A DNA stretch of 64,000 nt. It comes from a virus. Lineage: Duplodnaviria > Caudoviricetes. The DNA is taken from the IMG/VR virus record IMGVR_UViG_3300010885_031309; one strand, written 5' to 3'. Positions 23,167 through 46,424 of the stretch are shown piece by piece. Each line of letters starts with the position of its first letter. Position 1 is the first letter of the stretch. Made by a program: the position numbers and the translations under genes. Below the pieces are notes generated by a model that searched no databases, was not told where the DNA came from, and saw nothing but the letters and a program-made list of their open reading frames with translations.

Positions 23167-23256
23167 TGGCGGATAGTGAGGGATTCGAACCCCCGAGGAT
23201 ATCGCTACCCTAACTGCTTAGTAGGCAGCCGCCATCGTCCACTCGGCCAACTATCC
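23167..23256 (-). tRNA. tRNA-Ser(ACT)
   Basis: GCTGC-CTACTAA-GCAGT anticodon arm, long variable arm, G73, encoded CCA. Confidence 0.85.
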
Positions 23257-23338
23257 TTATACCATATCGAAACACACTGCCGCAAACTTTCAATGCTGTA
23301 GTGAAGTCTATGCCACTCGCAATATGCTTCGATATGGT
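23257..23338 (-). ncRNA. Spacer hairpin with GCATATT/AGTGTGT core
   Basis: ACCATATCGAA/TTCGATATGGT closing stem includes the ACCA end of tRNA-Leu. Confidence 0.6.
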
Positions 23339-23656
23339 GCCCGGAGCCGGACTCGAACCGGCACGCCTTTTACGGCGAGGGATTTTAAGCGTGTTGTCTC
23401 AAAGTTTCCTAAGAGCACGGACTATCTCTTTACCTTCAACATTACTTGTTAAGGTAGTGGGCGTTCATGCTGGTTATTAAGAGGGCTTTACCTCTCCAGT
23501 AGTCTCTACACCTTCAAGGAATGTATTCCTTGCTTGGCTCGCGATTGCCATTTTACAGGCTCTCCCGAGTTAACCCACAGTTTACTCAAACATTTCTGTC
23601 TGAGGGGGACGGGCTTTCTGGTCCTCCCTTGTGTCTACCTATTTCACCATCCGGGC
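23335..23656 (-). tRNA. tRNA-Leu(TAA) interrupted by a group I intron (23390-23624) at position 31/32
   Basis: Exons 23625-23656 and 23335-23389 rebuild a canonical Leu(UAA); intron has IC3-like GCAATC..GAGCCAAGC, GTAGAGACTA, GATAGTCC and ends in G. Confidence 0.85.
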
Positions 23657-23659
23657 AAT

Positions 23660-24310
23660 TTAATTTTTAAAACTCTTTCCGTGTTTCCTTGTTTCATTAT
23701 ACTCAATCACATATTTTTTCCATAGCATAGTCAATCTAGGCTGTGAAGTTTTTATGGATTTAGCAAACGAAGTCACAGATTTGCAATCTGATTTAAGAAA
23801 AGTTTCATATAATTGATATGCCAATTTTCTTGATTCTTCATTTCTATCTGTTAAATAGTCTTCTCTTGATCTTAAATTTTCTTTATCAAAATTTATAACT
23901 CTACCTAACTCCCATCCTTCTTCAACTTTGAAATTTTTTGGGACTCTTTTTGACAGTCTCAACTTTTTATTGTGAATCCAAAAAGAGCCATATTGAGAAT
24001 TATTTTCTCCTGATTGAGCAAAAGACATTGCTTCAGATAATTTTCTGCGTAGCCAGCCATATAATTTGTTGGATGGTCTGTCTGGAATCATCATTGCGGC
24101 TGCCTTTACCAAGGCAAAATTTTTTGGATACATTTTGACTAATAGTTGATGAGCAACATAATGTTCTTCAGGTGTTAATGGTGCCAAATTAGAAGGATCA
24201 TCAGATCCACCCAAACATTTGGGAACAATATGATGATACTCAACATAATCACTTAATGATCTTGATTTAGCCTTTTCAATCAAAAGATTGTAGTGTTTTA
24301 CATAATTCAT
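23660..24310 (-). mobile_element. Free-standing HNH homing endonuclease
   Basis: HHIVPKCLGG...NL..LTPEEH..AH; GATAAATA late-type promoter upstream. Confidence 0.85.
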
Positions 24311-24366: not shown

Positions 24367-24654
24367 TGGTAGGCCCCCTGGGGATCGAACCCAGACTCTA
24401 TCGATTATGCTTACCACTATAGTTTTCACTACCAGATTACCCTGTTTGTGGTCTGGACTATGCCTTCACCATCGCTTTCGCATTAGGTGGGTGATTATAG
24501 TCTCTACACGTTCCCTTGCGGGCTTCGCTCGGCGTTGGCATCAGCATTACCTGTTAAGCGTTCACCGAATTTACACCTTACTACTATACCGTTTCCAGTA
24601 TAGCGACCCATTATTACTTAAGTCGATTGCATTTACCAATTATGCTAGAGGCCC
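24367..24654 (-). tRNA. tRNA(CAT), likely Ile2 (or Met), with group I intron (24410-24620) at position 33/34
   Basis: ATCGA-CT|CAT-AA-TCGAT; P1 GACU/GGUC with U-G pair; R and S elements; terminal G. Confidence 0.9.
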
Positions 24655-24660
24655 ATTTAT

Positions 24661-24731
24661 TTCTTAAAGAGCGTTTGCTGACTAACTATTTGTTTTATCA
24701 GCGTATGAATACATTGTATTCTTATCTTACT
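24661..24731 (-). promoter_or_regulatory. Promoter plus boxB-like hairpin and boxA (CGCTCTTTAAGAA) upstream of tRNA operon
   Basis: TTGACA-N17-TACAAT, then GCTGA...TCAGC hairpin, then boxA-like sequence. Confidence 0.6.
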
Positions 24732-25350
24732 TATCTGTCAAGTCATGTTCTTCCATTTTTTGTCTAGCTTCTAACTTTTTACGCAGCATAGTATGAATAC
24801 CAGGATTTACTCTAAGAATACCAGGCATAAGTTGATGCCTAATATAATTGCGAGTATACTCAATATCATTATTACTAGTATCCTCAATCCACTCAACATT
24901 TTTGCGCCGCGCCCAATCTTCTAGATCATATTTTCTATTTAGAAGTAGTGGTCTAATCACATTAGCACGACTGTAGGGCATTAAACTACTAGTGCCGTGT
25001 AAGCTACTCCACACCCAAGTTTCAGCAACATCGTCTAAGTGATGTGCTGTCGCTACGGTTTCAAAGTTACTAAAAAACTTGTATCGCTCATTGCGCCAAT
25101 GTTCCTCCGAACTAAGATTTTTTGGCTTGTTGGCATCAATCACATACACATGAACGGGCATCTTGTATTGTTTACACACTGTGCTAGTTACAAACTTGTA
25201 GGCTCGTTCACTATTCTCAGTTCTGTGATGCACGAATGCCACGCTTACATCATGGTTTTTACGCAAGAAGTCAAACAACACCATGCTATCTACACCGCCG
25301 CTTAGTGCGACGGTGATTTTTCGCGGCACAGTTTCTAACAGCTTAATCAC
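24727..25350 (-). CDS. tilS: tRNA(Ile)-lysidine synthetase, catalytic domain only
   Basis: SGGVDS PP-loop, ATAHHLDD.AET, IRPLL, EDTSN...YTRNYIRH. Confidence 0.9.
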   Translation of the reverse strand: MIKLLETVPRKITVALSGGVDSMVLFDFLRKNHDVSVAFVHHRTENSERAYKFVTSTVCKQYKMPVHVYVIDANKPKNLSSEEHWRNERYKFFSNFETVATAHHLDDVAETWVWSSLHGTSSLMPYSRANVIRPLLLNRKYDLEDWARRKNVEWIEDTSNNDIEYTRNYIRHQLMPGILRVNPGIHTMLRKKLEARQKMEEHDLTDK

Positions 25351-38256: not shown

Positions 38257-38535
38257 TGGTAGGACCAGCGAGGTTCGAACTCGCGACCAACGGATTAACT
38301 TACCACTATAGTTTTCACCACCAGATCGCTCTGTTTGTGGTCTGGACTATACCTTCATCATAGCATTTCTGCCTTAGATGCCCGCCGTCTAGTCTCTACA
38401 CGTTCCCATTACTGGGCTTCGCTCGGTATCGCCATTTTACAGGGTTCACCGAATTTGACGGGTTCTACTTACAAAATTTCTTTTGTAGCACTCCTATTTT
38501 AAAGTCCGCTGCTCTACCGGCTGAGCTATAGTCCC
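38257..38535 (-). tRNA. tRNA-Lys(TTT) with group I intron (38299-38501) at position 34/35
   Basis: GCGGA-CTT|TT-AA-TCCGT; P1 ACUU/GAGU; AAATTCGGTGAA, GTAGAGACTA, TAGTCC; terminal G. Confidence 0.9.
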
Positions 38536-39620: not shown

Positions 39621-39980
39621 CTAGAGTAGCAGACTCTTTCGTCCACTCTCTAGAGCACACTTCATTGCAATTCCCAGCGCTGCGGCACATGGAAACCTAT
39701 TGCCACGTTTGAACTTGAAGCCATTTAGCGTAAACGGCTTAAGAACCTCATCGCCATTCCACCATCCACGTTGGACATAAATATACCCGTCACGTTCAAG
39801 AGACTCACGTAACTTGGTGAATTCTGGATGATCTATAGTACTGATCGCATAACTAGTATTTTCGTAGACTAGCGCATCTACTAATTCATCTGGCGTTAGT
39901 GTTTCTTTATTAGCAAAACGACTAAGACTAGTCTTTTGTGTAACACTAGTTAAATATTCTGATTCAATTGTAAAATTCAT
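39621..39980 (-). CDS. Hypothetical protein
   Basis: 119 aa with RBS. Confidence 0.6.
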   Translation of the reverse strand: MNFTIESEYLTSVTQKTSLSRFANKETLTPDELVDALVYENTSYAISTIDHPEFTKLRESLERDGYIYVQRGWWNGDEVLKPFTLNGFKFKRGNRFPCAAALGIAMKCALESGRKSLLL

Positions 39981-40222
39981 TACGATCTCCTAACATTTCT
40001 ATATACACCTGCTGACATACGATCTCCTTAATAAGAGGAGATTAGATTTTTTACAGCCGACGATTACCCTACACGGCATCATGAATAGTGTAGGCTTTAC
40101 CTGGCATATTTATAAGATAATTGCCAGCATCTAACGAAGGGTGTCTTACCACCCCAAACTAATATATAGTATAAGTATATTATTAATAAGACATATATCA
40201 GCATGTGTATATAGAAAACGAC

Positions 40223-40300
40223 TGGAGCACAGGGCCGGATTCGAACCGGCGGTTTTACGGTTTTGCAAACCGTTGCATTGGGCCTCTCTGCCACCTGTGC
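40223..40300 (-). tRNA. tRNA-Cys(GCA)
   Basis: ACGGT-TTGCAAA-ACCGT; T73. Confidence 0.92.
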
Positions 40301-40303
40301 GTT

Positions 40304-40380
40304 TGGTGGTGACGGGCAGGTTCGAACTGCCTTCATTCAGCCTTATGAGGGCTGCGTATTTCCACTAATACTACATCACC
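40304..40380 (-). tRNA. tRNA-Met(CAT), elongator-type (or Ile2)
   Basis: CAGCC-CTCATAA-GGCTG. Confidence 0.85.
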
Positions 40381-40396
40381 AAATATAAATAACAAC

Positions 40397-46154: not shown

Positions 46155-46424
46155 TGGCTCCCTGTCGTGGGGTCGAACCACGGACCAACAGATTCCGGTT
46201 TGTGTGACTTTCGCCACTCCCTGGACTTTATCTTGACCATAGCATTTCTGCCTTAGGTCCCTGCCGTCAAGTCTCTACACGTTCCCGTTTCTGGGCTTCG
46301 CTCGGTATTGCCATATGCTTTCGCACTTAGGTTTCACCGAATTTGACAGGATTTTCAACTACTGTTTCCAATAGAAGTGTCCATTTCTAAACAGTCTGCT
46401 GCTCTACCTCTGAGCTAACAGGGA
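46155..46424 (-). tRNA. tRNA-Asn(GTT) with Azoarcus-type group IC3 intron (46195-46389) at position 36/37
   Basis: GCAGA-CTGTT|AA-TCTGT; intron ends GTCCAGGGAGTGGCGAAAGTCACACAAACCGG, matching the Azoarcus tRNA-Ile intron 3' end as I recall it. Confidence 0.92.

Follow-up and report, generated by a model that had tools for sequence, protein, structure and literature searches.

Few features of group I introns are as strongly conserved as the wobble pair between a U at the end of the 5′ exon and a G of the internal guide, and this pair has a central place in the accepted account of cleavage-site recognition. In the Tetrahymena ribozyme, replacement of this U.G wobble by a Watson–Crick pair strongly impairs the first step of splicing. 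The effect of such a replacement is cited, for the C-G case, in the text of the preprint by Williams (2020; bioRxiv 10.1101/2020.01.27.920355), a survey of approximately 80,000 genomes that tested eight insertion positions, including 31/32, and arrived at 21 classes, and in which U at −1 accompanied G at omega in 98.5% of raw calls. That text names Leu.3Cg as the sole class lacking U at −1 and dismisses four further calls as errors; within its text and seed alignment there is no Leu class at position 0. The alignment also holds a subgroup defined by an additional hairpin between P7 and the 3′ strand of P3 (the P7–P3′ hairpin), comprising Lys.2Ug, Asn.4Ug, Phe.2Ug, Leu.1Ug, and the tmRNA introns. 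A literature search, outside which most subscription journals lay, returned nothing on introns at the 31/32 site, on A at −1, or on tRNA-Leu introns of Burkholderiales. We describe here an intron with that site and that base, a combination we could not find described.

The window, by which we mean the whole 64,000-nt stretch of DNA analysed, appears to belong to a large freshwater phage: it encodes a phage-type ribonucleotide reductase and structural proteins, its best DNA matches come from freshwater metagenomes, and approximately 20 tRNA genes lie on one of its strands. The interval 23335–23656, which an earlier sequence-only reading had singled out as an intron-bearing tRNA gene, coincides exactly with a minus-strand tRNA-Leu(UAA) gene (Table 1). 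Our preferred reading, to which we assign a probability of roughly 0.65, is that this is a working phage tRNA-Leu(UAA) gene carrying a group I ribozyme of a widespread and apparently undescribed A31|C32 class, in which an A-U pair would occupy the cleavage site and helix geometry would direct the choice of site. The intron is real and conserved, and it is very probably functional.

Table 1. Coordinates of the interrupted tRNA-Leu(UAA) gene, its predicted intron elements, and neighbouring features in the window
Feature	Position	Strand	Details
Interrupted tRNA-Leu(UAA) gene, 322 nt	23335–23656	−	Acceptor stem GCCCGGA/TCCGGGC; class II; long variable arm; encoded CCA
5′ exon, 32 nt	23625–23656	−	Ends ...ACAAGGGA; anticodon-stem strand AGGGA; A31 = 23625
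Group I intron, 235 nt, no ORF	23390–23624	−	GGACCAG...ACAACACG; Rfam RF00028 match and covarying helices
P1 extension, short weak hairpin	23611–23624	−	Starts at or next to +1; loop consensus CAGAAA/CAGACA
Internal guide 5′-GUCCCC-3′	23605–23610	−	U 23609 with A31; CCC 23608–23606 with G30–G28; G 23610 unpaired in P1
P2 hairpin, GAAA loop	23585–23604	−	Directly abuts guide; eight pairs, each with several pair types
P4–P5 domain	23539–23568	−	P4 strands 23568–23563 and 23544–23539; fourth pair a G.G mismatch, 23565/23542
P6/P6a	23510–23538	−	29/29 paired everywhere; up to six pair types per position
P7 5′ strand GAGACUA	23500–23506	−	Partner 23424–23419; guanosine-binding site; invariant 29/29; fits Rfam consensus
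P7–P3′ hairpin, CUGGAGAGG...CCUCUUAAUAACCAG	23470–23499	−	Nine pairs; 29/29 paired; compensatory changes
P8	23433–23454	−	From the 29-sequence alignment
P9.0, P9, and omega-G	23390–23418	−	P9.0 GUG 23418–23416 with CAC 23393–23391; P9 with GAAA loop 23415–23398; omega-G 23390
3′ exon, 55 nt	23335–23389	−	CTTAAAATCCCT...GGGCACCA; C32 = 23389; CUUAAAA loop, then UCCCU stem strand
Free-standing HNH-type homing endonuclease gene	23660–24310	−	PHROG 655 'homing endonuclease', E 1.5e-47; weak Pfam HNH match
Further group I intron in a tRNA gene	24429–24630	−	Weak, 36.5 bits; adjoins PP-loop/TilS-like gene 24727–25350
Group I intron, tRNA-Lys(UUU), 34/35	38329–38511	−	U at −1; Watson–Crick fourth P4 pair
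Group I intron, tRNA-Asn(GUU), 36/37	46202–46402	−	U at −1; Watson–Crick fourth P4 pair

Applied to the window, ARAGORN did not call the interrupted gene. The Rfam group I intron model (Intron_gpI, RF00028) matches positions 23398–23646 on the minus strand with 53.5 bits (gathering score 50, E 1e-12), a match that appears with lax filters and is missed by the default gathering scan. Once A31 is joined to C32, ARAGORN recognises tRNA-Leu(taa), both in the window and in 33/33 relatives. Among the eight possible junctions around the anticodon loop, 31/32 is the only one that leaves G as the last base of the intron, and this omega-G, at 23390, stands right after the covarying helix P9.0. The earlier placement of the 5′ splice site after A31, proposed on the grounds that it restores a canonical tRNA-Leu(UAA), is borne out, as A31|C32 alone yields both an omega-G and a canonical tRNA. 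Given a 3′ site after the terminal G, only a 5′ site after A31 produces the 7-nt loop CUUAAAA. It is equally correct that no U lies near the 5′ junction: the last 11 bases of the 5′ exon in the window contain no T. The classes of Williams insert between two of the seven loop bases and have G at omega, with U at −1 in all but one class, which has C; the present intron lies instead at the boundary of stem and loop (position 0) and has A at −1.

Pattern scans of IMG/VR, JGI metagenomes, and GTDB genomes, with hits filtered by a script for a T-loop, an intron core, and a matching acceptor stem, yielded 29 distinct full genes, which were aligned. Six later members (L208, L211, L133, L110, L151, and L100) bring the family to approximately 35 distinct genes with the same A31|C32 junction, all of them tRNA-Leu(UAA) genes interrupted between A31 and C32. 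Their sources are phage contigs of 5–239 kb in IMG/VR, metagenome contigs, and Burkholderiales genomes, including those of the cultured species Curvibacter microcysteis and C. cyanobacteriorum. A search for this junction in related genomes had been suggested by the sequence-only reading as a check, and the junction was recovered many times over. The base at −1 is A in 29/29 aligned relatives and is invariant across the approximately 35 genes. The wide scans demanded G-CTTAAAATCC in their pattern, so that conservation of the terminal G is not to be inferred from those scans alone; four scans free of this requirement gave the identical junction in 9 loci. Comparison by blastn with 50,697 cultured phage records matched parts of the core or of the exons and revealed no relative over the full length.

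Several members and related fragments have unusual arrangements. One family member (L139:191–625, minus strand) carries an insertion of approximately 100 nt in the loop of its P7–P3′ hairpin, which shows that this loop tolerates cargo. On contig Ga0154020_10344520 (L134, minus strand), a 31/32-type intron retains its 3′ exon, and its 5′ exon is not recognisable; its guide sequence is directly preceded by the 3′ end of another intron-bearing tRNA, and the gene may be rearranged or split. A second group-I-like insert of approximately 370 nt appears to occupy the D arm, after GGTAGA, of the gene on contig Ga0247611_10002699 (L100:1700–2350, minus strand); it scores only 29 bits with Rfam, its junction is ambiguous, and its −1 base would be G or A, again not U. 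Finally, a further locus (L176, in G141:C140) contains the 5′ part of a tRNA-Leu(UAA), with a match that ends after the anticodon arm, and may be the remnant of an integration site.

The intron folds into a complete group I core, with the P3–P8 and P4–P6 domains and the guanosine-binding site of P7, and P3 to P9 are paired across the 29 sequences (pair counts refer to the 29-sequence alignment and to a structure derived from the window). Every position of P3, P4 (with the exception of its fourth pair), P6, P6a, P7, and the P7–P3′ hairpin is paired in 29/29 sequences, P5 in 27–29/29, and P2 and P9 in most. Several pair types occur in every helix but the invariant P7, up to six of them in P6a; P2, P3, P5, P6a, the P7–P3′ hairpin, P9.0, and P9 combine multiple pair types with 90–100% pairing at most positions. 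P9.0, a 3-bp helix directly after P7 that ends just before the terminal G, occurs in the variants GUG/CAC, AUG/CAU, GG/CC, and AA/UU. Compensatory changes of this kind point to a ribozyme under selection, with a functional fold and not a decaying one.

The fold has two further distinguishing elements. One is the 30-nt hairpin between P7 and P3′ (23499–23470), which accounts for what the sequence-only reading had called an extra insertion after R. The hairpin follows GAGACUA, has UAAUAA on its 3′ side, and is succeeded by the 3′ strand of P3; it is not new, being present with UAAUAA in several seeds of the 2020 alignment of Williams. An exact 19-mer of it also occurs in introns of protein-coding sequences (e.g., psbA-like) and in further tRNA-Leu introns. 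The other is the fourth pair of P4, which is G.G in 28/29 sequences and in the six later members, A.C in 1/29, and never Watson–Crick, while the P4 pairs that flank it covary. In model ribozymes, the wobble pair is recognised by a surface made up of P4 and J4/5. It is a reasonable idea that the non-Watson–Crick P4 pair may be linked to the missing wobble. The fourth P4 pair is of a standard type in the other tRNA introns of the window and in the script-scored introns outside the Leu 31/32 class among the fetched loci, as well as in nearly all of Williams' 26 seeds, where the exception seen was Pam37.Asn.4Ug, with A.C.

Turning to the 5′ splice site, every member contains the guide 5′-GUCC(C/G)C-3′, located 8–20 nt into the intron and followed directly by P2. 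The pair between exon base 28 and the guide is G-C in 22 sequences, C-G in six, and G-U in one (of 29), and is mirrored by the anticodon-stem pair 28:42. In the six sequences with C28, at least four of which are distinct, a G replaces C in the guide, as it does in the anticodon-stem partner; this covariation fixes the register of P1, with U opposite A31 and CC(C/G) opposite G30–N28. The resulting helix, GGGA/UCCC, thus shows a compensatory G-C to C-G change. A31 faces U in 28/29 alignment columns, the 29th being an alignment shift, and in place of the usual U in a U.G wobble all members present an A at −1 opposite a U. The guide G immediately 5′ of this U is invariant and has no exon partner. 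As a candidate for P10, C32 is aligned with this G in 28/29 columns (the 29th again an alignment shift) and U33 with A in 18/29; C32 is constant in all members.

The P1 of the sequence-only reading, AGGG(A)GGAC paired with GTCC-CCCT and A31 either bulged or opposite C, can be written for the window and is contradicted by the covariation of C28 with the guide G; it is available in the window-type subgroup only and is impossible in introns that start with UCG..., AAGG..., or GCC.... The alignment thereby supports the guide G, and not A31, as the base that would be unpaired in P1. An A31-U pair with a bulged G and an A31.G pair with a bulged U are inseparable in these data because all three bases are invariant. 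Between the splice site and the guide lies the P1 extension, of which there are 22 distinct versions whose stems vary and yet pair (UCAG/CUGA, AGGU/ACCU, GAC/GUC, GCC/GGC, UAGUU/AACUA), often from +1 itself. The +1 base is U in 14 of the 35 members, G in 10, A in 10, and C in 1. An apparent rule that +1 is never C was refuted by L100, in which a C at +1 is paired inside the P1 extension.

From this anatomy, splicing can be envisaged as follows. Exogenous guanosine would attack after A31, at a scissile bond situated at a helix junction opposite the unpaired guide G, with the short hairpin starting at +1. For ligation, P10 would form between the invariant G and C32, often extended by pairing of the preceding A with U33, such that the ligated exons on the guide would make one continuous, all-Watson–Crick helix before the released exons refold into the anticodon stem. 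In place of a wobble, the choice of site could, speculatively, be guided by the helix discontinuity together with a constant spacing of 5 nt to P2, and perhaps also by the non-Watson–Crick P4 pair; an alternative local geometry would have an A31.G pair and a bulged U. The invariant guide G looks like the positional homologue of the wobble G, and in the 14/35 members with U at +1 a U.G pair could form one position downstream. The anatomical side of this mechanism is supported by the alignment, whereas its self-splicing chemistry is a prediction. We put at even odds the wider proposition that a natural and widespread class sets its 5′ splice site without U.G, with A in a Watson–Crick (or A.G) pair beside an unpaired invariant guide G, that the P4 pair may compensate within the docking surface, and that the stem/loop boundary can thereby serve as an insertion site without a U.

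The two Curvibacter species bear on whether the intron is removed in cells. In both C. microcysteis (L046:6947–7275, plus strand) and C. cyanobacteriorum (L053:2158–2486, plus strand), the interrupted gene is the sole match to a pattern of the tRNA-Leu(UAA) anticodon loop and T-loop, a check made with sequence patterns and not with a full tRNA scan; ARAGORN did not call the interrupted tRNA-Leu(UAA) at the C. microcysteis locus. Across the genus, 8/9 genomes have a pattern match, all but one of them in a single gene. Six Curvibacter genomes beyond those two species carry an intronless tRNA-Leu(UAA), single-copy in five and with C32 in all, and the interrupted gene occupies the syntenic locus, where it is preceded by the same neighbouring gene and the same tRNA-Gly genes. 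As the sole match, it must have its intron removed exactly at A31|C32 unless decoding of UUA has been dispensed with, and by this reasoning from the genomes exact removal in vivo almost certainly takes place. The Curvibacter exons are nearly identical to those of the window phage, with one difference in the 5′ exon, and the variable arm of the gene in C. microcysteis RS43 and C. cyanobacteriorum HBC61 reads ACGCAAGUCGUA. An intronless gene in one Curvibacter-family genome equals the Curvibacter exons except for the variable arm and reads GGGA-CTTAAAA across the junction. Among phages, the loop is 7 nt long in 120 intronless genes that share this stem (83 with C32 and 37 with U32), and none of these 120 loci is syntenic with the window. 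Compared with the Curvibacter locus, four RNA libraries contain intron-bearing contigs identical or close to the gene, with identity over 268 nt in one case. Joined sequences, GGGA-CUUAAAA or GGGA-UUUAAAA, are present as well and run from A31 (6978 in L046) into CTTAAAATCCCT; these joined forms carry variable arms other than that of the interrupted gene and may stem from intronless genes of other organisms.

Of the three explanations that the sequence-only reading had offered for the non-U splice site, the best fit is the first, a ribozyme that recognises its splice site in an altered way. An inactivated tRNA gene, whether a decaying pseudogene, the product of a recent U-to-A mutation, or an assembly error, draws what appeal it has from the non-U splice site alone and from the failure of standard finders to detect the gene. 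It is highly improbable and we reject it: A at −1 is invariant in approximately 35 sequences whose helices covary through compensatory changes, the exons are intact, and each of two cultured Curvibacter species yielded, by pattern, the interrupted gene at the syntenic locus as its single tRNA-Leu(UAA) gene. Removal at A31|C32 in vivo with the help of a protein, such as an RNA chaperone of host or phage or a maturase-like factor, would apply if the ribozyme alone cannot use an A-U pair. The missing wobble pair, the crippling effect of Watson–Crick replacements in model ribozymes, and a P1 of just 4–5 bp, in competition with an anticodon stem that uses those exon bases too, all speak for such help, which we nevertheless regard as unlikely. 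The intron lacks an ORF, the elements of its catalytic core are all intact, and the neighbouring ORF is of a DNA-endonuclease type and is absent at the Curvibacter locus. Moreover, members occur in settings as unrelated as large and small phage contigs, Burkholderiales chromosomes, and AT-rich metagenome contigs, which makes a common dedicated cofactor unlikely.

A different possibility is that cleavage falls one base downstream, after +1 and opposite the guide G, giving either an 8-nt anticodon loop or a 3′ site past C32. By position the guide G does match the wobble G of Azoarcus-type guides, +1 is U in 14/35 members, a similar intron is placed by Williams at 32/33 with U as its −1 base, and ARAGORN also accepts a variant in which +1 is kept and C32 dropped. 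Against this, the variability of +1 would cause position 32, or an extra base, to differ among near-identical tRNAs, and moving the 3′ site would make C the final base of the intron, even though P9.0 ends right before G. The 8-nt-loop product that retains +1 is not recognised as tRNA-Leu by ARAGORN in 22/33 cases, and no 8-nt loop occurs in the 120 intronless phage genes or among 301 Curvibacter-family genomes. Nor did IMG/VR yield a sister type in which the 3′ exon begins at U33 (G|UUAAAAUCC); 21/21 pattern hits there were without a T-loop. We consider a downstream site improbable, and the A31|C32 junction remains the preferred reading.

The surroundings of the gene hint at how it may have spread. 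The stop of the HNH gene lies 4 nt upstream of the tRNA-Leu gene, and the endonuclease gene is situated between tRNA-Leu and a second intron-bearing tRNA. This arrangement of an HNH gene and an ORF-less intron recalls 'collaborative homing'. The HNH neighbour suggests that the intron-bearing allele spreads at the DNA level between phages and Burkholderiales hosts, and, together with the near-identical exons of phage and Burkholderiales genes, hints that phages and hosts exchange intron-bearing tRNA alleles as complete units. A tRNA-Ser called by ARAGORN (23167–23256, minus strand) adjoins the tRNA-Leu gene on its downstream side; the anticodon is ACU, and its A34 is unusual outside tRNA-Arg. 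A permuted 'tmRNA*' called by ARAGORN at 39978–40396 (minus strand) overlaps tRNA-Cys and tRNA-Met genes and has no Rfam tmRNA match, and is probably a false call.

A large natural family with A-U at the cleavage site and all other group I features retained offers a ready-made test of other determinants of the site, such as helix geometry, the bulged G, and the distance to P2, with many sequence variants and two cultured bacterial hosts in which no other tRNA-Leu(UAA) was found by pattern. There are also consequences for annotation. Standard tRNA and Rfam scans miss such genes, and if annotation pipelines behave likewise, two Curvibacter species would appear to be without tRNA-Leu(UAA). Programs that map introns by scoring a U or C at −1 will either place the 31/32 class wrongly or drop it.

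Compared with known systems, the 31/32 family shares with the 34/35 tRNA-Leu(UAA) intron the host gene, a compact, ORF-less, IC3-like ribozyme with a P3–P9 core, GAAA loops on P2 and P9, and the omega-G. The 34/35 intron, in contrast, sits between U34 and A35, has U at −1 in a U.G pair, and lacks a P7–P3′ hairpin, whereas the 31/32 family has A at −1 paired with U, a fixed non-Watson–Crick P4 pair, and the hairpin. The Azoarcus pre-tRNA-Ile (CAU) intron (Ile2.5Ug) is likewise compact, with a guide 5′-GU... that abuts P2, very similar J6/7–P7 and J8/7 segments, and P9.0 before the omega-G. Its first guide G pairs with the U at −1; in the 31/32 family the equivalent G faces +1 or is bulged, and cleavage would fall one position earlier. 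Two fungal mitochondrial introns, reportedly described by Hur and Waring in 1995, have C.G at the 5′ splice site. Leu.3Cg of Proteobacteria (Williams 2020), whose splicing is putative, is similarly a natural intron without U.G and with a Watson–Crick pair at the cleavage site. Leu.3Cg and the two fungal introns nonetheless have a pyrimidine at −1, the guide G as its partner, and the usual 34/35 site, while the 31/32 family has a purine, A, at −1, which pairs with U and leaves the guide G unpaired. Mga42.Leu.1Ug, a tRNA-Leu intron in Williams' seed alignment, agrees with the 31/32 family in architecture: in its 5′ region ...GAGUCCGC is followed by a GNRA-capped hairpin, and it shares the guide motif, P2, and a P7–P3′ hairpin with UAAUAA; from its row in the alignment we infer a relationship with the 31/32 family. 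Mga42.Leu.1Ug is mapped to 32/33, with U32 at −1 in a wobble with G and a Watson–Crick fourth P4 pair, whereas in the 31/32 family the 3′ exon begins with C32, so that the 5′ exon must end with A31. The comparison suggests that the invariant guide G was formerly the wobble partner, with cleavage in the 31/32 class falling one position earlier.
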